This document shows positions 15,152 to 44,750 of a stretch of 64,000 nucleotides of DNA, piece after piece. The notes beneath the pieces were generated by a model. The model did not search any database. It was not told the origin of the DNA and saw only the letters and a program-made list of their open reading frames with translations. Where the stretch lies: contig JAYFNX010000011.1 of assembly GCA_034933245.1 (NCBI GenBank), forward strand, positions 948-64,947. The letters are read 5' to 3'. Made by a program: the position numbers and the translations under genes. This DNA is from Candidatus Pelethousia sp. (GTDB lineage Bacteria > Bacillota > Clostridia > Christensenellales > CAG-138). How positions within the stretch are numbered: the stretch's first letter is position 1; the number at the start of each line of letters is the position of its first letter.

Positions 15152-15655
15152 TTATTTCTCGCTGCTGCCAAGTTTTCCTCCGCCGCGCTCCGAGGCCATT
15201 GCGCAAAGGGCGTCGTAGGAAACCTCCCGCACTTCCGTTTTGGGCACGGGCAGAAGCACCATCTGGGCAATGGCTTTTTCCGCAGGATATAAAAGGCAGG
15301 CACCCGCGTCCACCTCGTCCGCCAAGCGTTTCCTGGCAGCAGGCTTGGCGATATACAGGGGTAGGTTGTTATGGTTGGTAACGGGAATAAACCACTCTCC
15401 CCGGTATCCGCTATCAATCACCCCACAGCGCTGGCCAATGCCTTGGGTTCCGGATGAACCACGCTCATGAATTTGAAAATAATAATCCGGCGAGCAGGCG
15501 CTTGCAATGCCGGTAGGCAGGGCGCGTGTTTCATGCGGGTCCAAGCGGAGCGCATCGTCCTCCAGGCGGATGTAGATATCATACCCCGCATCTTCCGCCC
15601 GTTTAGAAGGAAGAACGGCATCCGGCCGAAGTTTGGAAAAATAAAGGGTTTCCAT
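15152..15655 (-). CDS. dut: dUTPase module; may also be translated on its own from an internal start
   Basis: All five dUTPase motifs are present (AGYDIY, ERGSSG, GVIDSGYRGE, IAQMVL, RGGGKLGSS). The ATG at 15655 is preceded by AAGGAGG with a 5-nt spacer, but no stop codon separates it from the upstream XdhC frame. Confidence 0.6.
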   Translation of the reverse strand: METLYFSKLRPDAVLPSKRAEDAGYDIYIRLEDDALRLDPHETRALPTGIASACSPDYYFQIHERGSSGTQGIGQRCGVIDSGYRGEWFIPVTNHNNLPLYIAKPAARKRLADEVDAGACLLYPAEKAIAQMVLLPVPKTEVREVSYDALCAMASERGGGKLGSSEK

Positions 15656-16690
15656 AGGGCCTCCTTGTTTAAGATGGGTTTCAAATAGGACTTGCCCGGC
15701 CCGGTGTGCAATGAGCTCGGCAGCAATGCTGATGGCAATTTCCGCAGGGGTTTCCGCCAGGATAGGCAGGCCGATTGGGTTGTGAATGCGGCCAATGTCC
15801 CCTTCGGAGAAGCCGGCAGCCAAAAGCGCTGCACGAGTAGCGGCCATTCTGGAACGGCTACCGATGAGCCCGATGTACTGGGCGGGTGAGCGAAGGGATT
15901 GAGCAAGAACCGCGTGGTCCGCCGCATGCCCCCGCGTCATGATGACGATAGAATCCTGGGGCCGTAGGCGCAGCGTTTGTTCAAAAGAGGAAAAATCCCC
16001 CAAAAGAACCTTGGTTGCGCAGGGAAAGAGACGCTTTTGGGCAAACGCGGGCCTGTCCTCAAAAACAACGGGACGGAACTCCAAATGCGCCAATACGCGA
16101 ACGAGCTCTCGCGCAATATGCCCGCCGCCGAAAATATATACGTACCCCGAGCGAACCAGCGGGTTAAGAAAGAAGAAGGAATCGCTTTGTGTTTCCCAAA
16201 GCAACGGTGCCCTGCATGCAAGGGATTCCAATACAACCGGCAAGGGGTCGCCAAAGCGCAGTTGACCGTCCATTCCATATAGCCCCGCACGCCAGGAATC
16301 TCCAGGGCCAGCCTGTAAAGCCAGCCAAACATCCGCATCGTCCACAAGCGCAGAGGCTATCGCTTCAAAGAAAGGCGCTCGACTGGGCGCGCAATGCTGA
16401 AAGAAAATCCATACGCACCCCATATCCGGGGAAGAACCGCCCGCTGGGGGAGAGACGGAGAAGGAGCCGATAAAGGAGCGCCGCACCGCAAGGGCTTCCC
16501 TAGCTTTCTCCCCTGCCAAATGCTCCATAACGCCCCCGCCGATGGTGCCCACCGCTTCCCCGTTTTGCAGCAGAGCCATCATCGCCCCCGGGCCTCTTGG
16601 AACGGAGCCCTGGCTTTTTACCACGGTGCACAAAAGGGCCTCCCGGTCGGCCACAAGCTCTGCGGCCAGGGTTTGAAACAGCTTTTGCAT
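15152..16690 (-). CDS. XdhC/YqeB-like molybdenum-hydroxylase maturation protein fused in frame to dUTPase
   Basis: The N-terminal half has XdhC/CoxI motifs (VVKSQGSVPRGPGAMM, GTIGGG) and the XdhC Rossmann domain (YIFGGGHIAREL). The C-terminal 167 aa is the dUTPase. ATG at 16690 with GGGGAGG 5 nt upstream. The GTG at 16696 is too close to the SD. Confidence 0.8.
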   Translation of the reverse strand: MQKLFQTLAAELVADREALLCTVVKSQGSVPRGPGAMMALLQNGEAVGTIGGGVMEHLAGEKAREALAVRRSFIGSFSVSPPAGGSSPDMGCVWIFFQHCAPSRAPFFEAIASALVDDADVWLALQAGPGDSWRAGLYGMDGQLRFGDPLPVVLESLACRAPLLWETQSDSFFFLNPLVRSGYVYIFGGGHIARELVRVLAHLEFRPVVFEDRPAFAQKRLFPCATKVLLGDFSSFEQTLRLRPQDSIVIMTRGHAADHAVLAQSLRSPAQYIGLIGSRSRMAATRAALLAAGFSEGDIGRIHNPIGLPILAETPAEIAISIAAELIAHRAGQVLFETHLKQGGPMETLYFSKLRPDAVLPSKRAEDAGYDIYIRLEDDALRLDPHETRALPTGIASACSPDYYFQIHERGSSGTQGIGQRCGVIDSGYRGEWFIPVTNHNNLPLYIAKPAARKRLADEVDAGACLLYPAEKAIAQMVLLPVPKTEVREVSYDALCAMASERGGGKLGSSEK

Positions 16691-16946
16691 GCACACCTCC
16701 CCAAACGATTGCTTCTCCTATCATAGCACGAGGAAAAGAATTCGGGAAGGGACGCCGTAACCAGGGGTCCGCAACCAAAAGAATGGCTTATTGGAAGGGG
16801 TGCTATGAATATAAAAATACCGGCGCGAAAAACAGGGGCACAACTTTCCTTCCCGCTGCGATTACATGGCCCATTCCGCTTCGCAAACGGAACTGGAAAA
16901 AAGCAAACATGGTTTTAGGCGCTCCGCACCTGCGACCACCCTTTGC

Positions 16947-17681
16947 CTAAAAGAAGGGATAGACCGCTGCGTTAAACCAGCGATAGCCCAAGTCATATTC
17001 AGGCAGTATGTTTAAATCCATCAATAGGCCCGCCAGGCCCCAAAGCAGACCCAGAACGGCCATTAGGAGAAGAAATATAAACAACACGCCAAAAAAACGT
17101 TTGAAGGGGGAAGTTCGCCGGATAAGCGGCTCGTCATCCCAAACCGAATCCTCCTCGTCGCTGAAAAGGAGGGGTATGGAAGGGGACGAGGCAGGCGCCG
17201 CCTCCAGAGGGGGAGGGCTATCCTCTGTTTGTAAATCATCATCCGCCTCAAAATTCGGTTCGGAGGGGATGGCAAGGTCTTCACACGCCAAAACACAGGC
17301 CGTTGGCGAATCCTCCTCCACACAAGGGCCCGTGGGAACCTCTTTGGGAACTGGGGGCTGAAGGGGGCCCGCAGAACGCAAGACAGGCTGGGGCGACAAG
17401 GGAGGCAGCGGCTGTGCCGGCTTGGCCAAAGCCGCTTGGGAGGCCTGGGACCGGGCCAGGCTAATAAGCCAGTCCTCCATATCGGAGGGGGTATAACCCG
17501 CGGCAATGGATTGGAGGGCTTGGGTGAGAATTCGTTTTGAAAAGGCCGTGGCCTCCTCCGGACTTCCCAGGTAGGCAAGGCCTATATCCTGGACCGTATG
17601 GGCATATTGGACGATCCATGCCCGAATAGCATCGGCATCGCCTTTGCGCAAAGCAGCAAGGCGATCTTCTGATTGCTCCAT
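16947..17681 (-). CDS. Hypothetical membrane-anchored protein with sigma-70 region-2-like N-terminus
   Basis: ATG at 17681 with AAAGGGGGG upstream. The N-terminal 80 aa resembles ECF sigma region 2 (LRKGDADAIRAWIVQYAHTV...). A Pro/acidic low-complexity linker and one C-terminal TM helix follow. Confidence 0.55.
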   Translation of the reverse strand: MEQSEDRLAALRKGDADAIRAWIVQYAHTVQDIGLAYLGSPEEATAFSKRILTQALQSIAAGYTPSDMEDWLISLARSQASQAALAKPAQPLPPLSPQPVLRSAGPLQPPVPKEVPTGPCVEEDSPTACVLACEDLAIPSEPNFEADDDLQTEDSPPPLEAAPASSPSIPLLFSDEEDSVWDDEPLIRRTSPFKRFFGVLFIFLLLMAVLGLLWGLAGLLMDLNILPEYDLGYRWFNAAVYPFF

Positions 17682-17782
17682 GGCCGCGCCCCCCCTTTCG
17701 ACAAAATTCTGCACAAACAATTATATAGCTTTTCTGCCATTGCCGCAACGGAAAAGCCCGGATAAAGGGCAAGACAAACGCG

Positions 17783-17857: not shown

Positions 17858-18904
17858 TTATTTCACCCAGATAGTCGCCTCGCCTTGGGGAACGGCATGG
17901 CCGATAATCCGGCTCCAATCATTCTGCTCACCTAAAGCGGAAAGGAGACGGTCCGCATCCGATTCCGCAACGCTAATGAGCAGCCCGCCGGCAGTCTGCG
18001 GATCAAACATGAGATCCTGCAGGGCTAGCGGAACGGTTCCTTCAAAGCGAACTTTCTCTTCCATATGGCTGCGGTTACGGTACGCGCCTGCGGGGATAAT
18101 GCCCTCTTGCGCGAAATTCAGGGCATTTGGCATAAGCGGCAGATTTTCCGCCTGCAGGCATATGCTGACGCCGCTGGCCTGCGCCAATTCCTTTGCATGG
18201 CCTAAGAGGCCGAAGCCCGTGATATCCGTGCAGCCATGAACAGACAGCCCCGCCATGGCCTGCTGGGCGCCTGCGCTCAAGGTTGTCATAACCCGGATCA
18301 AAAACGCTTGTTCCGTTTCATCCAGCAAATCCGCTTTCGCTGCGGTAGTCAGGATGCCGCTTCCCAAAGGTTTGGTTAACACCAGCACATCGCCCGGGCG
18401 GGCCCCACTGTTGGCAAGAATCCGATCCGGATGGACAAACCCTGTCACAGAAAGGCCGTATTTCGGTTCCTTATCCTCGATGGTATGGCCGCCGCATAAG
18501 CAAGCGCCCGCCTCCGCCACCTTGCTGGCCCCACCTTCCAAAATGGCGCGAACATCCCGAGGCGGAAGCTTGTCCGAAGGGAAACAGAACAAATTTAACG
18601 CCAGCTTTGGGATGCCTCCCATGGCGTAAATATCGCTTAAAGCATTGGAAGCCGCTACCTGGCCAAAGGAATAAGGATCATCCACCATAGGCGGAAACAA
18701 ATCCACTGTTTGGATGAGAGCGAGATCATCGCTCACTCGATATACGGCTGCATCGTCGCTGGTTTCCATCCCCACCAGCAGGTTGGGATCGGAAATCCGG
18801 GGCAGCCCGGTTAGCATATTCTCTAGGACGCCCGGCCCTATTTTGGCAGCTCAGCCGCCACAAGAGGTCATTTTGGAGAGGTAAATCTTTTCTCCGCTAG
18901 ACAT
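17858..18904 (-). CDS. selD: Selenide, water dikinase (selenophosphate synthetase), Sec-containing form
   Basis: The ORF track begins at 18817. Upstream in frame it reads MSSGEKIYLSKMTSCGG-UGA-AAKIGPGVLEN, which is the SelD N-terminal loop with UGA at the catalytic Cys/Sec position. AAGGAGGG lies 7 nt before the ATG at 18904. Confidence 0.9.
18851..18853 (-). other. In-frame UGA selenocysteine codon of selD
   Basis: TGA is read on the minus strand, three codons before the conserved Lys (U-A-A-K versus C-G-C-K in E. coli SelD). Confidence 0.85.
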
Positions 18905-18938
18905 GAAGGTTCCCTCCTTTCACCAGTTCCTTAATTTG

Positions 18939-18967
18939 ATTGTACCATGGATGGCCCACCGGCACAA
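18939..18967 (-). promoter_or_regulatory. Candidate selD promoter (-35 TTGTGC, 17 nt, extended -10 TGGTACAAT)
   Basis: Read on the minus strand, between the upstream terminator and the selD RBS. Confidence 0.5.
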
Positions 18968-18972
18968 CGCGC

Positions 18973-19009
18973 ATAAACAACAAATCGGGCGGACAAGATG
19001 TCCGCCCGA
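18973..19009 (-). terminator. Rho-independent terminator of the yedE-tusA-DUF3343 operon
   Basis: On the minus strand, TCGGGCGGACA-TCT-TGTCCGCCCGA followed by TTTGTTGTTTAT. Confidence 0.75.
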
Positions 19010-19020
19010 AAGCAAGACGC

Positions 19021-19263
19021 TTATGGATCTTGGTGCCGCCATACCTGCGCATAGCGCGCATCTTCGCAGCGGTAAACCGCTTCCGTATCCTCCACTAAGA
19101 GAGGCGTGAAATCCGCATCCAGGGCGAAGCGTACACAGCTTCCGCAAGAAGCGCTTACGGAACGGGGCGTGGGCATCATCTTGCCGGGGATGCTCAGCTT
19201 TTTTAGCTTCCTGGCAAAAGATAGCGCCGCAAAGTGGGTATAGAAGGTGGCAATATAGTCCAT
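19021..19263 (-). CDS. DUF3343-like small protein (putative Se/S carrier)
   Basis: 80 aa with a CGSC motif. Size and position next to the TusA-like and YedE genes fit the DUF3343 family. Confidence 0.65.
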   Translation of the reverse strand: MDYIATFYTHFAALSFARKLKKLSIPGKMMPTPRSVSASCGSCVRFALDADFTPLLVEDTEAVYRCEDARYAQVWRHQDP

Positions 19264-19268
19264 GGCGC

Positions 19269-19478
19269 TTATTTGGAGATGGTGAGGGTATGGGTGTCGT
19301 CAGCGCCCTGAGCGCTATGCACCTGATAACCGGCGTTTTGCGCGAAACGCGTCACATTGCCGAGCGCAACGGCATTGTCCACCAGCACCTCAATCCCTTC
19401 AGGAGAGACCTTGAGCGCCTGTTTTGTTAGAAGTACGGGTTCGGGGCAGGCCCGGCCACGGGCATCAACCTGTTTCAT
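19269..19478 (-). CDS. TusA/SirA-family sulfur(selenium)transferase, YedF-like
   Basis: 69 aa with N-terminal DARGRACPEP (CPxP active-site motif). Confidence 0.8.
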   Translation of the reverse strand: MKQVDARGRACPEPVLLTKQALKVSPEGIEVLVDNAVALGNVTRFAQNAGYQVHSAQGADDTHTLTISK

Positions 19479-19492
19479 AGGAAAATTCCTCC

Positions 19493-20557
19493 TTAGTCCT
19501 TTTGCTTTTGCAGGTTCATCACGGCGATAAGGGCCACAAGAACCAGGCAGATCATCACGGCGATCTGGCCGTTCAAGGTGGGGCCGTCGCCGGAGGAGGC
19601 CAGCTTGAAGTTGTGGCAGAAGGCGGCGCCTACGGTCATACCCAGCACGGCTACGCCGCTATCCGCATTGCCGCTGCCGGCCAAGATGAGCTGGCGCAGG
19701 GGGCAACCACCCAGCAATACGCTGGCAAAGCCCACCAGGACCATGCCCAGGGCATTCCAAAGGCCGTCCGTATGCGCTACGGGCTGGTCCGCAAAGGAGA
19801 AGTTTACGCCGGCGCCGGTAAGCAGATTGCCGAGCAATACCGCAACGATGATCGCGATGAAACCATAGAGCAGGTGGCCGTCTTTAAACATGATGGCATC
19901 CCGCAGGCCGCCCACCATGCACAGGCGGGACTTTTGAGCCAGCGCGCCCACGACGAGGCCGGCGATCAACGCAATGGCGATGGGAGCACGCATGGAACCC
20001 GGGCCCTTCTCACTGAAGAAGAGGAGGCCTGCGCCGAAAACGAGAAGGATAAACAGGCCCAGCGAGATGGCGCTGGGAATATAACCCTCCAGCTTAGGCA
20101 TATCGTAGGTGCGCTTGAGTGTGAACCCTTTATTTAAGAAGAAGATACCCATGAGAATGCCGATAACAAACCCGACGAGGCCTACGACCGCATTCAGATC
20201 CCCGCCGCCGATACGGATAATCATGCGCAGGGGGCAACCCAGGAACATCAGTGCGCCGACCATTACGGCAAAGCCCAGAACAAACCGGATAAGGGGTGCG
20301 CTGCCGCCCTTGGGAGCAAATTCTTTGCCCACAAGGCTCATGATCAGAGCGCCCAATACCAGGCCGATAATTTCGGGCCGGACATATTGAACCACTTCAG
20401 CGCGGTGCATGCCTACGCCGCCCGCGATATCACGCAGGAAGCATGCGATACAAAATCCCATGTTTTTGGGGTTGCCAAAGGCCACCAGCGCAACGGCGAT
20501 GATGCCCACGATTAGCCCGGTCACGATGACAAGGCCGTGCTTTTTGAAAAAGCCCAT
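19493..20557 (-). CDS. yedE: YedE-family membrane protein (putative selenium/sulfur-compound transporter)
   Basis: 354 aa, polytopic, with paired conserved Cys motifs (FCIACF, LGCPLR, RLCMVGG, GGCPLRQ) typical of YedE/YeeE. Confidence 0.8.
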   Translation of the reverse strand: MGFFKKHGLVIVTGLIVGIIAVALVAFGNPKNMGFCIACFLRDIAGGVGMHRAEVVQYVRPEIIGLVLGALIMSLVGKEFAPKGGSAPLIRFVLGFAVMVGALMFLGCPLRMIIRIGGGDLNAVVGLVGFVIGILMGIFFLNKGFTLKRTYDMPKLEGYIPSAISLGLFILLVFGAGLLFFSEKGPGSMRAPIAIALIAGLVVGALAQKSRLCMVGGLRDAIMFKDGHLLYGFIAIIVAVLLGNLLTGAGVNFSFADQPVAHTDGLWNALGMVLVGFASVLLGGCPLRQLILAGSGNADSGVAVLGMTVGAAFCHNFKLASSGDGPTLNGQIAVMICLVLVALIAVMNLQKQKD

Positions 20558-20673
20558 TAGAAGAATACCTCCTATATATGGATGATTGTGTGTGGTTCCT
20601 TACCAGGTTCATGATATAAAGGCGGGGAGGCAAACTCAAATAGAAATATCAAAAGAAAGGGAGATAACTATCG

Positions 20674-20691
20674 ATTTAATCTATATTAAAT
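20674..20691. promoter_or_regulatory. Inverted repeat ATTTAAT-ctat-ATTAAAT in the divergent yedE/desulfurase intergenic region
   Basis: 7-bp arms with a 4-bp spacer, seen directly in the sequence. Confidence 0.3.
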
Positions 20692-20861
20692 GACATGCAG
20701 ATAGAAAATTGGCTAAAAATTAACCAAAATGCTGCTTTATAAGCAAGACAAATGGGGAAGAACCATTTATAAAATCTATATATAAAGAAAAACCGTACAG
20801 ACAAACCAGGGGTGTTGCGGTATACTTTAAAAGAACAAAGGAACAATCGGGAGGCAAGCGG

Positions 20862-22013
20862 ATGATTTACTTTGACAATGGAAGTACCTCCTTCCCCAAA
20901 GCACCGGGCGTGGGAGAAGCGATGGCGGCGCTTATAGCCACGGGAGCATTTAATATCAACCGGGGGGGATATGAGGGCGCTTACCGCGTGGCGGATATGG
21001 TGCTGGATACGCGGGAGCAAATCTGCCGGCTTCTGGATTGGGAAGACCCCAAAAATGTAGCCTTTACCGGCAACGTGACCCAGTCCTTAAACCTGATTTT
21101 GAAAGGATATCTGAAGGCTGGCGACCATGTGATCGTAAGCTCTCTGGAGCATAATGCCGTTATGCGGCCTTTAAATCAATTGGGCAAGTTGGGGGTTACC
21201 TTTGATGCCGCCCAGGCCGATGCGGATGGCCGTTTGGCCATAGAACGAATAGAAGCGCTTATCCGGCCGCAAACCAAGCTGGTTGTGATGACCCATGCCT
21301 CCAACGTATGCGGCACGGTACTGCCTATCGCGGATGCGGCGGCCCTTTGCCGGGCCCGTGGCCTACGCTTTGTGGTGGATGCGGCCCAAACGGCGGGGGT
21401 TCTGCCGCTTTCCATGAAGGAGCTGGGAGCGGACGCAATCGCATTCACAGGCCATAAGGGAATATTGGGGCCCCAGGGGATCGGCGGGATGGTTCTTACG
21501 GATGAATTCGCAGCCCAGATTGAGCCGTTGCTGAGCGGAGGGACGGGCAGCGTATCGGACACAGAGCAAATGCCCGCTTTTTTACCGGACCGATTTGAGA
21601 GCGGCACCATGAATTTGCCCGGCATTGCGGGGCTGCATGCGGCACTGGAATATATTCTGGAAACGGGGACTGACAGAATTAACCAGGTGGAAATGGAGCT
21701 TTGCAGCCGGTTTTTAGCTGGCGTGCGGGCTTTGCCTGGCGTCCGGATGGTTGGCGTAGACGGCATCCAAGGCAGGGTGGCTACCGTGTCCTTAGATTTT
21801 AGTTCCATGGGGCTGGATAACGCCGTCGTCTCCTATCGGCTGGATGATGAGCATGGCATTATGACGCGTTGCGGCATGCATTGCGCGCCGAGGGCCCATA
21901 AGACTTTGGGTACCTTCCCACAGGGTACCGTCCGCTTCGCCTTCGGCCATAAAAACACGCCCGACGAAGTAGATAGTTGCCTGGAAGCATTGAAAGATAT
22001 TTGCAAGAATTGA
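20862..22013 (+). CDS. Class-V aminotransferase: cysteine desulfurase / selenocysteine lyase family
   Basis: 383 aa. N-terminal IYFDNGSTSFPK, PLP-lysine FTGHKGILGP, active-site RCGMHCAP. GGGAGG RBS upstream. Confidence 0.85.
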   Translation: MIYFDNGSTSFPKAPGVGEAMAALIATGAFNINRGGYEGAYRVADMVLDTREQICRLLDWEDPKNVAFTGNVTQSLNLILKGYLKAGDHVIVSSLEHNAVMRPLNQLGKLGVTFDAAQADADGRLAIERIEALIRPQTKLVVMTHASNVCGTVLPIADAAALCRARGLRFVVDAAQTAGVLPLSMKELGADAIAFTGHKGILGPQGIGGMVLTDEFAAQIEPLLSGGTGSVSDTEQMPAFLPDRFESGTMNLPGIAGLHAALEYILETGTDRINQVEMELCSRFLAGVRALPGVRMVGVDGIQGRVATVSLDFSSMGLDNAVVSYRLDDEHGIMTRCGMHCAPRAHKTLGTFPQGTVRFAFGHKNTPDEVDSCLEALKDICKN

Positions 22014-22308: not shown

Positions 22309-23778
22309 TTACATATTTTTTAGAACGCCGGTGCGAGCATTGAACTCGTTGATAAGCGCATCGAGATCCGCGGCTTGGGCATGGATATCCGTCCAGTAGT
22401 GCGCATCATACCACTGCTGATTAATCTCTTCAAAGGTCTTCCCCTGCTGCTCAACCCACGTGTAATACTTCAGGTTATGGATCCGCTTACGTTCCTCGTA
22501 GGAGAGCTCCTTCATGCTATCCGTACGAATGCCATGGAGGTGTTCGGAAAAATCGCGTGCAGCCGTGAGCATATCATAGGGCCCCTGCTGTGCATTGAGC
22601 TCATCAACACGGCTGGTATACATGACGTAGGAATCGGTAGCAACCGTAGCCACAACATCCTTTTCGGTAAGCTCGTAGTATTTGGCAAATTTAATACAGC
22701 ACAGAAGATTGGCAATGCCGGAAATGCCCAGCAGTTCCAGATGGTCGATGGTTTCTTGCTCCACGCCAACCACGTCCTTAAGATATTTGTGACCTTCCGG
22801 TGTATTGAACAGGCGGAGGAGGTTTTGGCTGTCATCATCATCAATATCAATAACCATATCCGTATTCTTTACATTATGTACCCAAGGCACATGCTTATCT
22901 CCAATGCCTTCGATGCGATGCCCGCCAAAGCCGTTTTCCAACAGCGTGGGGCACTGCAAGGCTTCTCCTACCGCCAGCTTGGAATAAGGGTATTGTTCCT
23001 TCAGATAATCGCCGGCGCTCATGGTGCCCGCTGAGCCGGAGGTAAAGCAGGCGCCCGCAAAGCGTTTCTCTCCGCTTAAGGATTCATATGCATCCTGTAT
23101 GGCCTTGCCTGTTACCTGATAGTGCCAAAGCACATTACCCATTTCATCAAATTGATTAAAGATGACAACATCTTTACGGGTTGCCCGCAGCTCGTGGGTT
23201 TTATCGAAAATTTCCTTTACATTGCTCTCACAGCCAGGCGTGGCAATCACTTCGCCGGCGATGGATTTTAGCCAATCGAAGCGCTCCTTGCTCATTTCCG
23301 CGGGCAGGATCGCAACGCTTTCACACCCTAACAGCTTTGAGTTGTAGGCGCCGCCCCGGCAATAATTCCCGGTAGAAGGCCAAACCGCCTTGTTATAGGT
23401 TGGATCAAACTGGCCGGTCACCAGCCGGGGAGCAAGGCAGCCGAACGAAGCGCCCACCTTGTGGCATCCGGTGGGAAACCACTTGCCGCAAAGCATAATG
23501 ATACGGGCCTTGACACCGGTCAGGCTTGAAGGCAGCTCAATGTAGTTCACGTTGCCAAAGGTGCCGCCCTGCATCTTTGGTTCGTTGCGCCAAGTTATGC
23601 GGAAAAGATTCAAGGGGTTGATATCCCAAAGGCCCACCTTTTTAAGGGCTTCTTTAATCTTATCGGGGATAAGATCGGGGTTTCGCATCTGCGCAAAAGT
23701 TGGGATGACGATATGGTTTTCTTTTGCCCGCTCGACCGCACGCGAGAGCTTGTCTTCATGGATGGTTAAGTCGATCAT
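22309..23778 (-). CDS. Large fold-type II PLP-dependent enzyme (cysteine-synthase-like core; lyase/thiolase type)
   Basis: 489 aa with PLP-lysine context FPTGCHKVGASF and a cysteine-synthase-like block WPSTGNYCRGGAYNSKLLGCESVAILPAEMSKER. It has a long C-terminal extension. AGGAAGGA RBS upstream. Confidence 0.75.
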   Translation of the reverse strand: MIDLTIHEDKLSRAVERAKENHIVIPTFAQMRNPDLIPDKIKEALKKVGLWDINPLNLFRITWRNEPKMQGGTFGNVNYIELPSSLTGVKARIIMLCGKWFPTGCHKVGASFGCLAPRLVTGQFDPTYNKAVWPSTGNYCRGGAYNSKLLGCESVAILPAEMSKERFDWLKSIAGEVIATPGCESNVKEIFDKTHELRATRKDVVIFNQFDEMGNVLWHYQVTGKAIQDAYESLSGEKRFAGACFTSGSAGTMSAGDYLKEQYPYSKLAVGEALQCPTLLENGFGGHRIEGIGDKHVPWVHNVKNTDMVIDIDDDDSQNLLRLFNTPEGHKYLKDVVGVEQETIDHLELLGISGIANLLCCIKFAKYYELTEKDVVATVATDSYVMYTSRVDELNAQQGPYDMLTAARDFSEHLHGIRTDSMKELSYEERKRIHNLKYYTWVEQQGKTFEEINQQWYDAHYWTDIHAQAADLDALINEFNARTGVLKNM

Positions 23779-23817
23779 GTTCTGGTTCCTTCCTAATTAT
23801 AGTGTATTGTGATGCTT

Positions 23818-25086
23818 TTATTCCGCGATGCCGCACCAGCTTACGATGGTGCGGGCAAGTATTCTTATGGCATGGAGATAATCGGCAAGGTTTACCCACT
23901 CGTTGTTGGCATGCATCTGCTCCGTCATGCCCGGCCCAAAGATGACGGTAGGGGTGTTGCCATATTTAACAAGGTGGCGGATATCGGCCGCACCCTCCCG
24001 GCCCGAGATTACCGGCACTTTGCCCATAACGGCGGCAAAGCTGCCGCATAGTTCGGTTACGATAGGGCTCTCCACATCAATGGCCGCCGGCTCGGCAAAA
24101 TATCCGTTAAAAATGACCGCAGGCGGGTGATCCTTAAACCAGGGTTCCTGTTCGCTGACGCGTTGGGTAATGAAGCGCACAAATTCCGACTTTACCGCAT
24201 CGGAATCCTCCCCGGGAACGGTGGCCATGGACCCCTTGAGGGTACAGCTGTCCGGGAAGGCGCTGGCATAGGTTCCGCTGCTGAACTGGCCGATCATGCA
24301 AGGGATGGAAGCCAGAATATCAGGATAAAGCGGATGTCGAATTTTGGAAACGCGCTCTTTCTCAAATTCGGATACGGCTTTGGTGACAAGATAGCCAAGG
24401 TCTATGGCGTTTACCCCCTCGTAACGCCGCTGAATGCCGGCCGCTTTGCCTTTTATATTGATGGTAAACCAAATGCGGCCAATGGAACCGGGCTGTACCC
24501 GCATGCTGGAAGTTTCGCAGCAAATGCCGGCATCCGCACGATAGCCTTTTGTTACGCAGGCTAGGGTGCCGTTCCCTGAAAGCTCCTCGTCCATAACATA
24601 CTCGAGGATCACATCTCCCTTGAGCTTGATCCCCGCATCTCGCACCAGCTTCACGGCCATGGTCATGGCGGCAACGCCGGATTTCATATCCGCGGCGCCC
24701 CGGCCGTACATTTTCCCATCCGCAATATCCGCCGACCAGCAGCCATGTTCCCAATTGTCCGAAGATCCCTCTGGAATGACATCCACATGCCCATTGAACA
24801 GCAGGGAGCGCCCGCCGCCTTCTCCCTTAAGGACAGCCACCACATTCGGCCTGCCTTCATAAGAATCCACATCGACTTCTACAAAAGCGGGGTGCTTGCG
24901 AAGCGCATCCAATGCAGGGACAAAGCTGTCCACAGCAAGCCCCAGGCGGGTCAAATGCGCGCCTATGAACTCTTGAATAGGCCCCTCGTTGCCTGTGACG
25001 CTGGGGATACGCAAAATGTCCTGTAGAAAATGAATCGATTCTTTTTCTCTGGAGACTATAAAATCATCCAAATTTCCAATATTCAT
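23818..25086 (-). CDS. M20-family metallohydrolase (ArgE/DapE/YgeY-like)
   Basis: ATG at 25086 with AAGGAG 8 nt upstream. Motifs LLFNGHVDVIP and GRGAADMKSG are the M20 metal and catalytic motifs. Confidence 0.8.
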   Translation of the reverse strand: MNIGNLDDFIVSREKESIHFLQDILRIPSVTGNEGPIQEFIGAHLTRLGLAVDSFVPALDALRKHPAFVEVDVDSYEGRPNVVAVLKGEGGGRSLLFNGHVDVIPEGSSDNWEHGCWSADIADGKMYGRGAADMKSGVAAMTMAVKLVRDAGIKLKGDVILEYVMDEELSGNGTLACVTKGYRADAGICCETSSMRVQPGSIGRIWFTINIKGKAAGIQRRYEGVNAIDLGYLVTKAVSEFEKERVSKIRHPLYPDILASIPCMIGQFSSGTYASAFPDSCTLKGSMATVPGEDSDAVKSEFVRFITQRVSEQEPWFKDHPPAVIFNGYFAEPAAIDVESPIVTELCGSFAAVMGKVPVISGREGAADIRHLVKYGNTPTVIFGPGMTEQMHANNEWVNLADYLHAIRILARTIVSWCGIAE

Positions 25087-25194
25087 TCGAAGCGCTCCTT
25101 GTTTAAAGAAATCAGTGGAGATGACCTGCCTTGTATTTGTAAGTTTATCACACCACATAGAGCGATTCAACTGCCGAAAATGCCAGAAAACGGC

Positions 25195-25216
25195 CAAATA
25201 TTACCCGCAATATTTG
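25195..25216. promoter_or_regulatory. Inverted repeat CAAATATT-acccgc-AATATTTG in the divergent M20/PucR intergenic region
   Basis: 8-bp perfect arms. A third AAATATT copy lies about 40 bp downstream. Confidence 0.35.
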
Positions 25217-25425
25217 TATAAAACAAACAATAAGAAAGCGTGATACTCGGCGAGAAATATTGTAATGCAGGATCGAAAATAGTATCATATATTTACGAAA
25301 AATACCGATAATGTACATAAACCACACGAACAAACGATAATACGCGGCAGATCTAACAAATACCAAAACGCCGAATTTACGTGCATGCCATCGTCTTCAA
25401 AATACAAATTCAAGGGGATACCATT

Positions 25426-27108
25426 ATGGGAATATCGTTACTAGAGGCCATGCGTATACCTCCCTTCTCGGAAGCAAAACTGATAGCGGGTGCAGCCGGG
25501 ATTGGCCGCACGGTGGAATCCGCCAACATTCAAGAAGTGCCGGATGTAGACCGGTGGCTGCATGGGGGAGAAATCGTTTTTACGGCAGGGTATGCCTTTC
25601 AAACGACGGAGAACGCGGTGAAGCTACTGGAGCGGATAAACCACAAGGGCGCCACGGCAATGGCGATAAAACCCAGCCCATACCTTCCCTGCATTCCCAA
25701 GGAGATGATTGCATGCGCAGATAGGCTGGGATTTCCCCTTTTTGAAATATCGGAAGACATGCCCTATATGGATTGCATTCTACCGATATTGGAGCGCATC
25801 ACCCAAAGGCAGCTTACGGTTATGAAGCGGGTAGAAAGCGTGCATGAATCCCTGATGCAGTCGATCTTGCGGGATGAGGGCATGGACGGCATTTGCCGGA
25901 CGTTGAGTGGCGTTACGCAAAGCCCTGTTGCCATTCTTTCGCCCCAGGGGTCCATTATGGCCCGTTGGCATGAAGCCGCCCAGGAAGGCGCTTGTGCGCA
26001 AGACGAGGAGGAAGATGTGCGGCTCCAGGCCTTCCTGCGCAGCAGCAATGTACGCCATATGCGCCGGAACCAGTGCAATGCCGTAAACCTTGGGGATAAA
26101 ACAAGGCGCATATGCGTGCCGATCTTTGCACAGGACGCCCATATAGCTTACCTATTGCTGGATAAATCCATGGATGAAATGCTGGATCTCGATCTGATTG
26201 CATTTGAAAATGCCAGCTCTTTTATCGCCATCGAGATTTTGAAGGAAGAGGCGCTCATACAAAAGGAACAGAGAATTCGGGAGCAGTTCCTGGAGGACCT
26301 GTTTATGAAGCGCTATAACGACAACCGGGTTATGTACCAGCGGGGGTTGTATGTTGGCTTTGATATGAGCCGTCCCCATTGCGTTTTGGTGGTGGCGCCG
26401 GATGCTTTTGAAAGTTATATTTATGGCGAGCTGAAAAGCGCGAATGAAACGGAAGTGCAGAACATCAAGACCCGCATCCATAATTGCGTGCGGGACGGAC
26501 TTGCGGCCTATCCTGGTTCGCTTCTTACCATGACGGACGGGGTAAAAGTCGTAGCCATGGCGGAAATTCGAAATCCCGCGGATTTAAAGACCTTAAAGGT
26601 GGTTTTGCAGGAGTTGACGAAGAAGCTGACGAAGGAGTTTCCGCGCTTATTGTTTTCAGCCGGCGTAGGGCGCGTGAAACGCCGCCTTGAGGAAGTGGGG
26701 GTAAGCCGGGACGAGGCGATGCTTGCGCTGCGGGCAAGCCGCAAGACCAAGTTGCATACTGAGGACGAACGGATTATGTTCTTTGAGGATTTGGGGTGCC
26801 TGTGCTTTCTGTGTGAATTGGATGGTTCCACCGCTATGCGCAATTATTACGAGGAGCATATGCGCGCGCTGATAGAGTATGATGCGGAAAACAAGTGCGA
26901 TCTAATCGCAACGCTGGAAGCATACCTCGCGAGCAATCAAAACCTTCGGTTAACAGCAGAACGCCTTTTTGTGCATAAGAATTCCGTTATTTATAGGCTC
27001 CATAAAATCGAGGGGCTTATCGGGCAACGCCTCTCAGATGCAAAGACGGGATTTGATATGCAGCTTTGCTTATATTTACGCAGCATTTTTTCCGAACCGC
27101 AAAGGTGA
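25426..27108 (+). CDS. PucR-family transcriptional regulator
   Basis: ATG at 25426 with AAGGGGA upstream. It has a PucR-type N-terminal domain and a C-terminal HTH (LRLTAERLFVHKNSVIYRLHKIE). Confidence 0.85.
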   Translation: MGISLLEAMRIPPFSEAKLIAGAAGIGRTVESANIQEVPDVDRWLHGGEIVFTAGYAFQTTENAVKLLERINHKGATAMAIKPSPYLPCIPKEMIACADRLGFPLFEISEDMPYMDCILPILERITQRQLTVMKRVESVHESLMQSILRDEGMDGICRTLSGVTQSPVAILSPQGSIMARWHEAAQEGACAQDEEEDVRLQAFLRSSNVRHMRRNQCNAVNLGDKTRRICVPIFAQDAHIAYLLLDKSMDEMLDLDLIAFENASSFIAIEILKEEALIQKEQRIREQFLEDLFMKRYNDNRVMYQRGLYVGFDMSRPHCVLVVAPDAFESYIYGELKSANETEVQNIKTRIHNCVRDGLAAYPGSLLTMTDGVKVVAMAEIRNPADLKTLKVVLQELTKKLTKEFPRLLFSAGVGRVKRRLEEVGVSRDEAMLALRASRKTKLHTEDERIMFFEDLGCLCFLCELDGSTAMRNYYEEHMRALIEYDAENKCDLIATLEAYLASNQNLRLTAERLFVHKNSVIYRLHKIEGLIGQRLSDAKTGFDMQLCLYLRSIFSEPQR

Positions 27109-27387
27109 TACGCTCTAAAAACAGAATCGGTTTGCGCCATTTTAAGCCGTCGGGAGGGTTTCAATATGGAACGATAGCGCTTTTTTTCTTTTTGGGGAAC
27201 TTGATGGATTTTCCTATGAAAATACGCCCAACAGGTTAGCCCATTGGCAATCCAGCGCGCTGCTTACCTTGATTATACCGGGAGGATCAGAACGCATGGC
27301 CACAGCCTAAACTTTGGTCGCCTTATGAAGGGAAAATGAAAATGTACTGCGCCTAATATATGGACCACAATCACAAACATTTTTTAA

Positions 27388-27400
27388 AAACGTTGGTATG
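27388..27400 (+). promoter_or_regulatory. PucR-box-like motif AAACGTTGGTATG
   Basis: It resembles the B. subtilis PucR box WWWCNTTGGTTAA as I recall it (10 of 13 positions). It lies about 150 bp upstream of the DPD-like gene. Confidence 0.25.
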
Positions 27401-27548
27401 GTGTCACAATGACATGAAATCCGCGGATGTGATACGATAGCACCGTAAAAATGATTTAGAAAACAACCATATAAGCGTCTGTACAGAATCGAAAAAGCTT
27501 ATCAAAAAAACCCATCATAAGCACTTAGCATAGGAAAGGTGGAGCACA

Positions 27549-28700
27549 ATGGCAAATTTGGAAGTCTCTTATTGCGGCGTAAAGTTTCGCAATCCTTTGG
27601 TTCTTGCATCCGCAACCCCAGGCTGGGACGGAGAAGGTATGCGCCTGGCAGGAGAAGCGGGAATTGGCGGCGTTATCCCCAAGACGATTGGACCGGAACA
27701 GGACTGGGCTGCGCATCCGCGCAATGGCCGCATCTATTTGCACCGCTATAACGGCAAACCGATTGGACAAGTCAATCTTGAGCTGTTCACAACAATGAGC
27801 CGTGATGCATGGGTAAGGGAACAACTTGCTATCGCCAAAGAAGGCGGCGCTACGATGCAAGTTAGCATATTGGCTATGCCGGAGCCTGAAGAAACCGCCA
27901 AGCTGGTGGAGGAAATTCAGGCGACAGGGCTGGTGGATCTCTTTGAACTTAACGTTTCCTGTCCAATGCCCGCTTCCACGGTAGGCATGCACATTGGGAA
28001 AAGCCCCGAGCGCACCTTTAACCAAGTGAAAATTGCGAAGGCGGCATCCAAAATACCGTTTACGGTAAAAATGACGCCCAATGTAACGGATCTTATCGAT
28101 GTGAGCATTGCCGCAAAAGAAGCCGGCGCGGATGGCATTACCATCAGCAATTCCATCCGCTCTTTTGCAGGGGTGGATATTGAAAGCGGCAAGCCCTATC
28201 TGTGCGGATACGGCGGCTATACGGGCCCCGCAATTCATCCCATCATTATGCGCCATGTATCTGAAGTGGCACGCCATGTGGATATCCCTATCTCGGCTGT
28301 GGGGGGCGTAAACAGCTATAAAGAGGTAATCGAATTCATCATGCTGGGTGCAACGACCGTTCAGATCTGCACCGCCGTTATGTGGAACGGTTATGAACGC
28401 ATCACCCAGATTGTTAACGATTTGAACAAGTGGATGGATGCCAAAGGATACAAATCCTTTGAAGAGATTCGCGGGATTGCGCTTAAGGATATCACCACGG
28501 TGGAGAAGCTGGCGGAGTTGCCGGCCAAGTTCGCGGATGTGGATCGGGAGGCTTGCACCAATTGCGGCCTATGCCAACGCCTGTGTATGTATCGCGCCAT
28601 TCGCGAAAAGGACGGCAAGCGGTTTGTGGAAACCGGCAAGTGCGATGGTTGCGGCGTATGCGCCCAGTGGTGTCCTACCAAAGCAATTACGCTCAAATAA
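27549..28700 (+). CDS. Dihydroorotate/dihydropyrimidine dehydrogenase-like FMN enzyme with C-terminal 2x[4Fe-4S] domain (PreA-like)
   Basis: 383 aa with the class-1 DHOD/DPD barrel (active-site NVSCP, GGVNS) and CTNCGLCQRLC...CDGCGVCAQWCP. GAAAGGTGGAG RBS upstream. Confidence 0.85.
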   Translation: MANLEVSYCGVKFRNPLVLASATPGWDGEGMRLAGEAGIGGVIPKTIGPEQDWAAHPRNGRIYLHRYNGKPIGQVNLELFTTMSRDAWVREQLAIAKEGGATMQVSILAMPEPEETAKLVEEIQATGLVDLFELNVSCPMPASTVGMHIGKSPERTFNQVKIAKAASKIPFTVKMTPNVTDLIDVSIAAKEAGADGITISNSIRSFAGVDIESGKPYLCGYGGYTGPAIHPIIMRHVSEVARHVDIPISAVGGVNSYKEVIEFIMLGATTVQICTAVMWNGYERITQIVNDLNKWMDAKGYKSFEEIRGIALKDITTVEKLAELPAKFADVDREACTNCGLCQRLCMYRAIREKDGKRFVETGKCDGCGVCAQWCPTKAITLK

Positions 28701-28786
28701 TGGAATGGGACGAATTTCATTCCGCCCGGCTTCACGGGGGGAACTGCAATTAAATTACAATAAAACGGGAGGAAAAAGGAGGAAGT

Positions 28787-29878
28787 ATGAAAAAGTATAT
28801 CGCATTATTGCTGACATTCCTAGTTACCGTTAGCATGGTAGCAGGATGCGCAGCCCCGTCCCAACCGGCAGCGCAAGCCCCTGCGGCCCAGGAACCCGCC
28901 GCAACGGAGGCCCAAGCTGCGGAGCCCGCCGCTGCAAGTGAACCCGCTTATGTGTTAAAGATCGGCCACGACCACACTACCACCTCTCCGATTCAAGCTT
29001 CAGCCGAAGAGTTCAAGCGCCTTGTGGAGGAAAATAGCAATGGCCAGATCAGCGTGGAAATTTATCCCGCCCAGCAGCTCGGCAGTTCCCGCGAGATGAT
29101 CGAAAGCCTGCAGATCGGCACGCTGGAAGCGGTGCTGCTCCCCACGGCCAAATTCGGCGGATTCGACCAGCGCCTCAACCTTGCCGATATGCCCTTTATC
29201 GCTGACTCGGAGAAGGACTTCTTAACGATCTTCAACGGCGAGATTGGCCAGGAAGCCATGAGCGGCTTGCCTTCCATCGGCATTACGGGCATTGCGTACT
29301 ACCCCGAAGGATTCAAAGCCATAACCAACAACGTGCACCCCATTGTGACGCCCGCGGATCTGAAGGGCCTCAAGATCAGAACCATGGAAGCGCCTATCAT
29401 AATGTCCATGTTCTCGGCATGGGGCGCAAACCCGGTTCCCGTGGATTTCACCGAAGTTTATAATTCCCTCCAGCAGAACGTTGTGGACGGCCAGGAGAAC
29501 CCGTTCCTGTCCATTCATGATATGAAGTTTTATGAAGTCCAAAAATACATGACCATTTCCAACCATGCGTATTTGTCCTATTTCCTGGCGGCGAGTACCT
29601 CGTGGTTTGATGCGCTCCCCGCCGATCTTCAGGAAGTTGTTAGACAGGCCGGGATAGATGCATCTGCATTTTGCCTTGTTAAGATGAACGAGGCCAATGA
29701 CGGCTATCTCAAGACCATCAAGGACTACGGCGTGGAAGTTTATGAGCTCAGCCAGGAAGAGCGGCAGACATTTAAGGATGCATGTTCCTCTGTCTATGAC
29801 GACTATCGCGATGTTATTGGCGGCGATCTGCTGGACCGTGCGGTTGCACAGGCTGCGGAACTGTCTGCGGCCCAATAA
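28787..29878 (+). CDS. TRAP transporter substrate-binding lipoprotein (DctP family)
   Basis: Lipobox VAGC, an Ala/Gln/Glu/Pro linker, then a DctP-type domain. GGAGGAAG RBS upstream. Confidence 0.85.
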   Translation: MKKYIALLLTFLVTVSMVAGCAAPSQPAAQAPAAQEPAATEAQAAEPAAASEPAYVLKIGHDHTTTSPIQASAEEFKRLVEENSNGQISVEIYPAQQLGSSREMIESLQIGTLEAVLLPTAKFGGFDQRLNLADMPFIADSEKDFLTIFNGEIGQEAMSGLPSIGITGIAYYPEGFKAITNNVHPIVTPADLKGLKIRTMEAPIIMSMFSAWGANPVPVDFTEVYNSLQQNVVDGQENPFLSIHDMKFYEVQKYMTISNHAYLSYFLAASTSWFDALPADLQEVVRQAGIDASAFCLVKMNEANDGYLKTIKDYGVEVYELSQEERQTFKDACSSVYDDYRDVIGGDLLDRAVAQAAELSAAQ

Positions 29879-29913
29879 TAACACCTCGGCTCACGTTTTA
29901 ATGGAAAGGAAAA

Positions 29914-29941
29914 TCGTCTGCCGCGTTTTCGCGGCAGACGA
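29914..29941 (+). terminator. Stable hairpin after the TRAP SBP gene (no clear U-tract)
   Basis: tcgtctgccgcg / tttt / cgcggcagacga. Confidence 0.45.
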
Positions 29942-29967
29942 AAACCGAGTTAGGAGGTGCTTCTTGT

Positions 29968-30495
29968 ATGCTTGAACGGATGGATACCTACCTTTCGCGC
30001 TTTGAAAACGCGATAAACGGCGGCTTGATGCTTGCAGGCGTCGTCGTGTTATTTATAAACGTCATGATGCGTTACCTTTTTCATGCCGCATCTACTTGGG
30101 TGGAAGAAGCCTTGCGCTATGCGATTATCTGGGTGACTTTTTTTGGAGGCAGCCAGTGCGCAAAGAACGGCACACACGTTGGCATTGATCTTCTTACCCA
30201 ATCTCTTCCGGAAACCGGGAAACGGATACTTTCCGCAACGGGCCAGTTTATAGCAGGCGTATTAAACGCATTCTGTACCTATGCGGGGATACAGATGACA
30301 AAGCTCGTGCTGGACACGGCGCAGAAAAGTCCTGCAATTCTCATGCCGATGTGGATTGTGTATATAGCTATCCCCCTCGGATGTGGTCTGATGACGATCA
30401 GGTTCTTTGTTGCAGGCCTAAACATACTCAGGCATAATGGCCCGGGCTCCCTGATTGCCGACGAAGAAGGCCATGTCGATATGTCACGGCTGTAG
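29968..30495 (+). CDS. TRAP transporter small permease (DctQ family)
   Basis: 175 aa with four predicted TM helices, positioned between the DctP and DctM genes. Confidence 0.8.
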   Translation: MLERMDTYLSRFENAINGGLMLAGVVVLFINVMMRYLFHAASTWVEEALRYAIIWVTFFGGSQCAKNGTHVGIDLLTQSLPETGKRILSATGQFIAGVLNAFCTYAGIQMTKLVLDTAQKSPAILMPMWIVYIAIPLGCGLMTIRFFVAGLNILRHNGPGSLIADEEGHVDMSRL

Positions 30496-30504
30496 GAGGC
30501 CCAC

Positions 30505-31788
30505 ATGATAGCAGCATTATTTATTTCCTTATTTGTTCTTTTGATTCTTGGCGCGCCGGTATTCGTAGCGCTGAGCCTGTCCTCGCTGATTGCCATCGTA
30601 GGATTTTCCAACTATCCGCTGATGATCGTGGTGCAGCGCATGGTGGGCGGCGTGGATAAGTTCTCCCTCATGGCGATCCCTTTCTTTATTTTAGGCGCGA
30701 ATGTTATGAAGACAGGCGGGATCGCAAAACGAATTTTAAACTGGGCCCAGACCATGGTGGGCGGCAACACGGGCGGCATGGCCATGACCACCGAGGTCGC
30801 CTGTATGTTCTTTGGGGCCGTGTCGGGTTCTTCTCCTGCAACGGTGATCGCCATCGGCGGCCTTATGTATCCCAAGATGATAGAAAAAAAATACCCAAGA
30901 GGATTTACCACAGGTTTAATTACCTCCAGCGGCTCCGTGGCGTTGCTTATCCCGCCCAGCATTTCCGCTATCGTATACGGATCCGTCACCGGCGCGTCTG
31001 TTGGCGCCCTGTTTATGGCCGGTCTTGGCGCGGGCATTCTTTACGGCATCTGCTTTATAGCCTATTGCTTCTGGTATGCGAAAAAACACAAAATTCCCAA
31101 GGATCCCAAATGCGACGCGAAAGCAAAGTGGAAAGCCACCCTGGACGCCGCATGGGCGCTGGGCATTCCCATTATCATCATGGGCGGAATTTATGCCGGC
31201 GTTTTCACGCCTACCGAAGCATCGGGCGTGGCAACCGTTTATGCGATTGTGGTTAGCCTTTTTGTTTATAGAGATATGAAGCTTAAGGAGCTTTGGGAGT
31301 GCTGTATAGCTTCTGCAGGTTCGACGGCGCAAGTTATGATCCTTCTGGCCGTCGCATCTATCTTCAGCTGGGTCCTCACGGTGGGGCAGATACCCCAACA
31401 GCTTTCCCAGATGATCGTAAACGCGAATCTTTCGGCCGTGGGATTCCTCCTGGTGACAAACCTGCTGCTCATTGTGGAGGGGATGTTTATTGATGGCTCT
31501 TCCGCCATCATCATCACCGCGCCGCTGCTTTACAGCGCAGCCGTGGCACTGGGAATTAATCCGATTCACCTGGGCGTTATCATGGTTGCCAACGCCGCAA
31601 TCGGTATGTTCACACCGCCCTTTGGCCTCAATTTGTTCGTGGCGCAACCTGTTACGGGCAATAACATGAAAACCATTATGAAAGGCGTCATGCCCTTTGT
31701 GCTGATAAGCCTCATCGCCCTGGCGCTGATTACCTATCTGCCGGAGGTAAGCCTATTCCTGCCGAGGCTGGTTTACGGAACCGTTTAA
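30505..31788 (+). CDS. TRAP transporter large permease (DctM family)
   Basis: 427 aa, polytopic, with a typical DctM N-terminus. Confidence 0.9.
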   Translation: MIAALFISLFVLLILGAPVFVALSLSSLIAIVGFSNYPLMIVVQRMVGGVDKFSLMAIPFFILGANVMKTGGIAKRILNWAQTMVGGNTGGMAMTTEVACMFFGAVSGSSPATVIAIGGLMYPKMIEKKYPRGFTTGLITSSGSVALLIPPSISAIVYGSVTGASVGALFMAGLGAGILYGICFIAYCFWYAKKHKIPKDPKCDAKAKWKATLDAAWALGIPIIIMGGIYAGVFTPTEASGVATVYAIVVSLFVYRDMKLKELWECCIASAGSTAQVMILLAVASIFSWVLTVGQIPQQLSQMIVNANLSAVGFLLVTNLLLIVEGMFIDGSSAIIITAPLLYSAAVALGINPIHLGVIMVANAAIGMFTPPFGLNLFVAQPVTGNNMKTIMKGVMPFVLISLIALALITYLPEVSLFLPRLVYGTV

Positions 31789-33189: not shown

Positions 33190-33192
33190 GCC

Positions 33193-44717: not shown

Positions 44718-44750
44718 TCTAATCACCGACGGCTAAATAGCCAAATCAGA

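Follow-up and report, generated by a model that had tools for sequence, protein, structure and literature searches.

The association of selD, the gene for selenophosphate synthetase, with genes for a YedE-family membrane protein, a small TusA-like protein, a DUF3343 protein and a class-V desulfurase has been described before. Two comparative genomic studies proposed the roles of these genes in selenium metabolism (Lin et al. 2015, PMC5322559; Haft & Self 2008, PMC2276186), the association is common, and curated hidden Markov models (HMMs) are named for it. According to a 2024 study, no organism is known to possess a transporter specific for selenium (PMC11097638), and the specific uptake of selenium by bacteria and its safe delivery to selenophosphate synthetase form an unsolved problem. 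Here we describe five such genes at positions 17858-22013 of a 64,000-nucleotide (nt) stretch of Candidatus Pelethousia sp. (contig JAYFNX010000011.1), hereafter called the window. The locus brings no new kind of system. The original prediction, made from the sequence alone, placed the five genes here and assigned them to the labile-selenium-cofactor trait of selenium-dependent molybdenum hydroxylases (SDMH). All five open reading frames (ORFs) are confirmed at those coordinates, and the motifs CGSC, CPEP, HK and HCAP and the paired cysteines of YedE are all readable in the translations. The observation is confirmed once boundaries and names are corrected, and the cofactor interpretation is partly supported.

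The assembly of the genome that holds the window (G000) consists of 65 contigs and is rated 98.76% complete; other G numbers denote the genomes of relatives. Forty-one relatives, which are not independent samples, were surveyed for selD and YedE (21 with selD, 20 without). A wider census covered 80 other species, whose loci were fetched via YedE and whose neighboring genes were counted within 10 kb. Families were called with curated HMMs (TIGR/NCBIfam and Pfam) at their curated cut-offs. The features of the module, by window position, strand and length in amino acids (aa), are as follows.

17858-18907, minus strand: selD, selenophosphate synthetase, 349 codons, with selenocysteine (Sec) at position 19 and Lys22
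19021-19263, minus strand: DUF3343 / Se_S_carrier small protein, 80 aa, PF11823, CGSC motif, with Cys40 in a loop predicted to be exposed
19269-19478, minus strand: short SirA/TusA-like protein, partner of YedE, 69 aa, PF01206, with the cysteine of a CPEP motif
19493-20557, minus strand: YedE-family membrane protein, putative selenium transporter, 354 aa, TIGR04112
20558-20861, no strand: divergent promoter region, AT-rich, separating yedE from the desulfurase gene and containing a conserved TATAG-N3-YTATA dyad
20862-22013, plus strand: EF2568/SclA-like class-V pyridoxal phosphate (PLP) enzyme, probable selenocysteine lyase, 383 aa, TIGR01977

These genes probably form a general module for the acquisition and activation of selenium, providing selenophosphate for every selenium-using pathway of the cell. 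In such a module the YeeE/YedE-fold membrane protein YedE would take up a reactive selenium species and pass the selenium to Cys11 in the CPxP motif of the TusA-like protein, from which it would move to the exposed loop residue Cys40 of the DUF3343 protein. In parallel, the SclA/EF2568-like PLP enzyme would salvage the selenium of free selenocysteine as an enzyme-bound perselenide. SelD, using Sec19 and Lys22, would accept the selenium and make selenophosphate with ATP. This product would serve Sec synthesis by SelA, for SelD itself and for GrdA and GrdB, and, through YqeB and YqeC, would also supply the labile Mo=Se cofactor of xanthine dehydrogenase (XDH)-family hydroxylases, such as a nicotinate dehydrogenase (NDH)-like enzyme encoded in the window. 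The reading draws on the identities and families of the genes, on their conserved cysteines, on a gene order that is itself conserved, and on the occurrence of both selenium traits; from these we infer transport, the order of the relay, delivery to SelD, salvage of Sec and the downstream use of selenophosphate.

YedE is recognized by TIGR04112 (seleno_YedE) with 506 bits (cut-off 200). Its cysteines lie in a paired FCIAC/RLCMVG motif and in two GCPLR motifs, and a sequence search of the PDB with YedE gave no match. The yedE gene is separated by 14 nt from the gene for the TusA-like protein, which in turn is separated by 5 nt from the DUF3343 gene. This arrangement is close to invariant: in the census the TusA-like gene directly follows yedE in 80/80 species and DUF3343 comes next in 79/80, and within the family the same unit occurs in nine genera. 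As an invariant unit, the yedE-tusA-DUF3343 trio should be taken as one system in genetic and biochemical tests.

The 69-aa TusA-like protein matches PF01206 with 62.6 bits (cut-off 28.6) and has an ACPEP motif, and D5, A6, G8, C11, P12 and P14 are invariant among 16 orthologs. Its name had been given as TusA/YedF-like, of which the TusA part holds. It scores below the cut-offs of both YedF models, with 55 bits (cut-off 110) over positions 1-66 only of TIGR03527 and 26 bits (cut-off 79) on NF008242, the model for the Escherichia coli type. Because the match covers only the N-terminal domain of YedF, the protein is regarded as a short SirA/TusA-type partner of YedE. A true two-domain YedF (SirA-like plus DsrE-like, with a CGTC motif) is encoded elsewhere in the genome, at C41:15138-15725 of G000 (194 bits), and a second DUF3343 paralog with a single cysteine (L072:2206-2469) adjoins this yedF divergently. 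With these, the genome encodes small selenium-associated carriers in two sets.

The 80-aa DUF3343 protein matches PF11823, now named Se_S_carrier, with 52 bits (cut-off 25) and has an SCGSC motif. Within the family neither cysteine of CGxC varies; of 79 wider orthologs, all have the first cysteine and 49 have the second. An AlphaFold model based on 51 sequences, in all of which Cys40 is invariant, predicts a beta-alpha-beta-beta-beta-beta domain (pLDDT 93.4, pTM 0.82), with Cys40 located where an exposed PxPR loop ends. A PDB sequence search gave no match, and a Foldseek search of the model against the PDB gave nothing significant, only a weak likeness to ferredoxin-like, PII and ACT folds (best E 0.026, TM ≤0.56). 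The predicted features fit a role as a persulfide or perselenide carrier without proving it.

A more specific proposal is that YedE, the TusA-like protein and DUF3343 are obligate partners in a three-part relay for selenium uptake, which would be the first import system specific to selenium. DUF3343 would then be a carrier domain of a so far unsolved fold that hands selenium directly to SelD and has no counterpart in the thiosulfate uptake pair TsuA/TsuB. We offer this proposal tentatively and lean slightly against it. The near-invariance of the trio, the invariant loop cysteine and the lack of a significant PDB match are all compatible with it, and none of them proves it.

The class-V enzyme matches TIGR01977, the model of the EF2568 family, with 414.7 bits (cut-off 377) and possesses both the PLP lysine (GHK) and the active-site cysteine (HCAP). 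On the SclA model NF040779 it scores 393 bits, under the cut-off of 525, and it matches SufS and NifS models more weakly. It is a probable selenocysteine lyase. Its gene is divergent from yedE in 46/80 species of the census, and it stands divergently beside yedE in seven of the nine genera of the family that have the unit.

The selD gene required a correction of its boundary, and the corrected gene bears directly on which selenium trait the module serves. The ORF as listed, from 18817, is truncated; the true start is an ATG at 18907, reached when an in-frame TGA is read through. The start codon is preceded by a strong ribosome-binding site (RBS), AAAGGAGGG, and the encoded N-terminus is MSSGEKIYLSKMTSCGG-U-AAKIGPG. 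Only with read-through of the TGA at 18853-18851 does the glycine-rich loop with the catalytic Sec and Lys (SCGG-U-AAKIG) become visible. The match to TIGR00476 (363 bits, cut-off 125) was obtained with a 319-aa part of the protein, which has the AIRS (PF00586) and AIRS_C (PF02769) domains. The sequence elements in and upstream of selD are the following.

18851-18853, minus strand: in-frame TGA, the Sec codon, aligned with Cys17 of E. coli SelD
18824-18840, minus strand: small hairpin UAGGGC-CGGGC-GUCCUA, candidate minimal bacterial selenocysteine insertion sequence (SECIS), from the consensus fold of eight UGA-type selD genes
18939-18967, minus strand: putative selD promoter, TTGTGC-17 nt-TACAAT, with a TG at the extended -10 position, read from the sequence
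18975-19009, minus strand: terminator-like hairpin and T-run between DUF3343 and selD, 11-bp stem with 8 G-C pairs

The TGA is kept in six of seven genus-mates, whose SelD proteins are 75-79% identical, and in the relative G032. At the same position G001 and 11 other members of the family have TGC or TGT. The candidate SECIS has a 6-bp stem and a CGGGC loop, begins 10 nt 3' of the UGA, and is conserved. Covariation lends it no support because its sequence is invariant, and as a single-sequence fold it is no better than shuffles, so that we treat it as a candidate element. An Rfam scan of the whole window found no family at the gathering score, and no curated SECIS or riboswitch. In an unrooted SelD tree, in which long branches are flagged, a split with 100/100 support separates this genus and G032 (motif SCGG[U/C]AAKIGPG) from 11 yqeB-linked SelDs of the Cys type (motif KCAGCGAKVGAG). 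The tree is compatible with replacement of the family's Cys-type gene beside the module by a Sec-type selD.

The -10 box of the putative promoter reads TGnTACAAT, and its TACAAT part recurs in G004, G006 and G007. The gap between DUF3343 and selD in the same three genomes contains an equivalent GC-rich hairpin and T-run, and the stem sequence differs. Because a terminator-like hairpin, followed by a -10 box and an RBS, precedes selD, the gene is probably transcribed as a separate unit.

Both selenium traits are represented in the genome. Three genes in G000 are selenoprotein genes with an in-frame TGA, selD and two copies of grdA (one TGA each). The gene set of the SDMH trait is also complete: selD and an XDH-family hydroxylase are joined by yqeC and yqeB, which lie outside the window on contig C34. 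There, yqeC (C34:18303-19025, 131 bits, cut-off 73) and yqeB (match at C34:19033-19791, TIGR03309, 369.5 bits, cut-off 220) are adjacent with a 23-nt overlap, away from any hydroxylase. The statement that no YqeC-like gene is present in the window is correct. The suggestion of a YqeB-like gene at 15152-16696 is not borne out, as that gene is of the XdhC family and the match on C34 is the only one to TIGR03309 in the genome at E ≤ 0.001. A 117-aa ModE-like helix-turn-helix gene precedes the pair (whole region C34:17977-19812), and the same small gene accompanies yqeC/yqeB in G010, G014, G017 and G022. For selU/YbbB (TIGR03167), the marker of selenouridine, the best match in the genome reaches 19.8 bits against a cut-off of 219.75. 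Two further regions of the window bear on the cofactor trait.

15152-16696, minus strand: gene for an XdhC-family molybdenum (Mo)-cofactor chaperone joined to dut (dUTPase), PF02625 + PF13478 + PF00692, context outside the core module
31870-35498, plus strand: four-gene Mo hydroxylase operon, with the flavin (FAD) subunit at 31870-32724, the 2Fe-2S subunit at 32725-33189, and the Mo subunits L at 33193-34488 and M at 34485-35498

The genome holds six XDH-family Mo-binding subunits, and the one in the window, 10 kb from the selenium module, is the only one that is split (431 + 337 aa). The best PDB matches of subunits L and M are chains A and B of 3HRD, the Eubacterium barkeri nicotinate dehydrogenase with a solved Mo=Se site; the matches are full length, with 383 and 300 bits, and the next enzyme scores 209 and 189. 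By this resemblance the hydroxylase of the window likely uses the selenium cofactor.

One alternative is that the module is dedicated to this labile-selenium cofactor, providing selenium for YqeB, YqeC and the Mo hydroxylases and not for Sec synthesis. The gene order in the family, together with the XdhC-family gene and the NDH-like hydroxylase within the window, speaks for it. Outside this genus, nine genera have yqeB next to a Cys-type selD, and six of the nine have the YedE unit in that cluster as well. Clusters in the family often combine yqeC-yqeB-selD with a desulfurase (sclA) gene divergent from yedE-tusA-DUF3343, and in G019 yedE-tusA-DUF3343-yqeC-yqeB-selD are arranged head to tail on one strand. 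Eight family genomes with selD and yqeB and without selA carry YedE and the module, and G032, with selD and selA and without yqeB, has no YedE; these related genomes are not independent samples. Against such a dedication, the selD of the module encodes a Sec protein that falls beside SelD from a Sec-only genome, apart from the Cys type linked to yqeB, and yqeC and yqeB are located elsewhere in the genome in this genus. In the census, moreover, the neighbors within 10 kb include selA at 11 loci and selB at nine, with yqeB at three and yqeC at two, and selD itself is within that distance in 26/80 species. YedE homologs have also been reported from Sec-only organisms (PMC5322559, PMC11097638). 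We consider exclusive service to the cofactor unlikely.

The original prediction held that the neighborhood matches the cofactor trait and not the one for Sec or selenouridine synthesis alone. The link to the cofactor trait stands, through yqeB and yqeC in the genome, the NDH-like hydroxylase in the window and the yqeB-selD clusters of the family; the dedication does not, given the UGA-containing selD, the two grdA genes with TGA, the presence of selA in the genus and the excess of selA and selB over yqeB in the census. Since selA and selB outnumber yqeB among the census neighbors, and EF2568-type enzymes also occur without selD, the module is better described as a trait-neutral supply upstream of SelD. 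Depending on the lineage, the unit adjoins either the Sec trait or the Mo=Se cofactor trait, which argues for a supply line, upstream of SelD, shared by both.

Several points weigh against a general selenium module. The terminator-like hairpin parts selD from DUF3343, and co-transcription is not strict. DUF3343 homologs have been found in organisms without selD (PMC5322559). EF2568-type enzymes are above the cut-off in five genomes without selD and the cut-off of the SclA model is missed, so that the desulfurase need not be specific for selenium. Published data consist of comparative genomics (PMC2276186, PMC5322559) and one mutant study, in which deletion of yedE in Methanococcus maripaludis had only mild effects and YedE could not be matched with any particular selenium species (PMC11097638). 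Finally, the G000 assembly contains no selA, no selB above the cut-off, no SelB winged-helix domain and no tRNA-Sec.

This last absence could mean that the species truly lost selA, selB and selC, that selD and grdA are UGA-interrupted relics or are read otherwise, and that the module is decaying. The high rated completeness of the assembly would favor such a loss. The missing sequence, however, lies exactly where the Sec genes are expected. All seven genus-mates have selA (549-584 bits), and four of them share the order lysR-like gene, selA, selB, three genes, trxB, with selA-selB about 3 kb from trxB. Contig C42 of G000 begins in the middle of trxB: its positions 1-510 are the 3' half of the gene (88-91% identity) and synteny continues onward, while the 5' half, including the CATC site, is found nowhere else in the assembly. 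One of the TGA-containing grdA genes is beside this gap, at C42:968-1408. Because the selA-selB locus of the genus-mates maps to the cut start of C42 and the 5' half of trxB is missing, the Sec locus probably lies in unassembled or unbinned sequence. When the first 35 bases of C42 were used to scan metagenome contigs for exact matches, none was found. No tRNA-Ile was found in the assembly either (aragorn), and the absence of an RNA gene is weak evidence here because regions with rRNA operons are probably unassembled. The selD gene and both grdA genes are otherwise intact. The absence of selA and selB is probably an effect of the contig break and is not evidence of loss, and we rate a true loss as quite improbable. 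The locus also illustrates how Sec machinery "missing" from a draft genome can be an artifact of this kind.

Lin et al. (2015) raised export for YedE and detoxification for YedF (PMC5322559), and a module that expels excess selenium, with small thiol proteins buffering reactive selenium and no purpose in supplying SelD, is a further alternative. The Cys-rich small proteins could indeed serve as buffers. Against export stand the tight linkage of the module to selD and to an enzyme of the Sec lyase type, which consume or provide selenium for biosynthesis, and the response of yedE in M. maripaludis, where its mRNA rises 5.3 log2-fold on selenium starvation, not on excess (PMC11097638). In addition, YedE is present in 17/21 relatives with selD and in 0/20 without. 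We consider export quite improbable. The same comparison served as a check on restriction to genomes with selD, which YedE shows and the EF2568-type desulfurase does not.

A sulfur-only role, in which a TsuA/TsuB-type uptake system for thiosulfate or persulfide and a cysteine desulfurase happen to lie beside selD, is very improbable: YedE does have the Sulf_transp fold (PF04143, 62 bits) and a TusA-like partner, as TsuA has TsuB, and the weaker SufS/NifS matches of the desulfurase and the occurrence of its type without selD would suit such a role, but YedE scores only 28 bits (cut-off 400) and 22 bits (cut-off 645) on the two TsuA thiosulfate transporter models, which places it on the selenium side of this HMM check, it is confined to genomes with selD among the relatives, and clusters that join the unit to selD, yqeB/yqeC or selA/selB recur.

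Between yedE and the desulfurase gene there are promoter-like sites at 20639-20611 on the minus strand and 20798-20826 on the plus strand. Motifs in this region are conserved among genus-mates, including the TATAG-N3-YTATA dyad at 20690-20710. A search of the region in G000 and six genus-mates for a conserved, UGA-containing short leader ORF preceded by an RBS was negative. The dyad was considered as a LysR-type operator of a selenium regulon. It has 17 matches in the genome (four sites on both strands), none of which marks grdA, yqeC, yedF or selD, and since these matches miss the other selenium genes the proposal is unsupported and was dropped. A perfect palindromic copy of the dyad occurs at C23:78151 of G000, about 320 nt upstream of a thioredoxin gene.

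The XdhC-family gene at 15152-16696 scores under the XdhC equivalog cut-offs. In this genome xdhC and dut form one ORF of 514 codons, whereas in six genus-mates a stop codon divides them into two neighboring genes. A functional XdhC-dUTPase fusion is ruled out by these separate genes, and the joining looks like the loss of a stop codon specific to this species. Between selD and xdhC, at 16947-17720 on the minus strand, the window encodes a protein of 257 aa that has a Pro-rich linker and, at its C-terminus, a membrane segment. It has no Pfam or NCBIfam match, and a protein with 50% identity is encoded at the same position in G006.

On the other side of the module, positions 22309-31788 encode a 489-aa PLP (PALP) enzyme, an M20 peptidase (PRK06915-like), a PucR-type regulator, a PreA-like dihydropyrimidine dehydrogenase and a TRAP transporter. 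As a group these genes look like a catabolic island for some N-heterocycle. The M20 peptidase and GltD-like genes were considered as the SDMH markers YgeY and YgfK, and both are far under those cut-offs. Elsewhere in the window, at 1598-2974 and 43482-44726, long ORFs on the two strands overlap and are nearly equal in length (457/457 aa and 414/410 aa); no NCBIfam match was obtained with the plus-strand ORFs.

The clusters of Lin et al. (2015, PMC5322559), such as Shel_25110-25130 of Slackia heliotrinireducens, consist of the same families in the order YedE, SirA-like protein, DUF3343. They share with the present locus the association with selD and with enzymes of the Sec lyase family, and YedE is limited to genomes with selD in that study too. 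The present locus differs in having selD directly after DUF3343, with its own terminator and promoter as read from the sequence, in the two-domain YedF and second DUF3343 at the separate C41 locus, and in an unlinked LysR_Se-selA-selB block that is probably unassembled.

The orphan-selD/SDMH locus of Enterococcus faecalis, EF_2563-EF_2570 (PMC2276186), likewise has selD beside an EF2568-family Sec lyase-like enzyme and a TusA-domain protein, and yqeB, yqeC and XDH-family hydroxylases are present in the same genome, as here. E. faecalis has a two-domain YedF (TIGR03527), a SelD of the Cys type, no Sec trait, and yqeB/yqeC within the locus, whereas the Pelethousia locus combines a short TusA-like protein with YedE and DUF3343 and a SelD of the Sec type, the Sec trait is present in the genus, and yqeC/yqeB are on another contig. 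A reviewer comment printed with the description of the E. faecalis locus asked whether selD is ever co-organized with SDMH genes outside that species (Haft & Self 2008, PMC2276186). The repeated adjacency of yqeC, yqeB and selD in this family answers the question.

The hydroxylase of the window is like the nicotinate dehydrogenase of E. barkeri (3HRD) in its four subunits and in a Mo subunit split into parts of about 430 and 335 aa. Its neighbors differ, being the PucR regulator, the PreA-like enzyme, the M20 peptidase, the PLP enzyme and the TRAP transporter, and no other nicotinate-fermentation genes were recognized among them.

The TsuA(YeeE)/TsuB(YeeD) pair, which takes up thiosulfate, resembles the present arrangement, with a membrane protein of the YeeE/YedE fold encoded beside a TusA-like protein with a single cysteine. 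A cysteine-lined path that passes a chalcogen anion to a cytoplasmic carrier is a plausible template for the YedE relay. The present system is set apart from that pair by the low scores of its membrane protein on the TsuA models, by a third component, DUF3343, that is near-universal, and by linkage to selD and not to sulfur assimilation.

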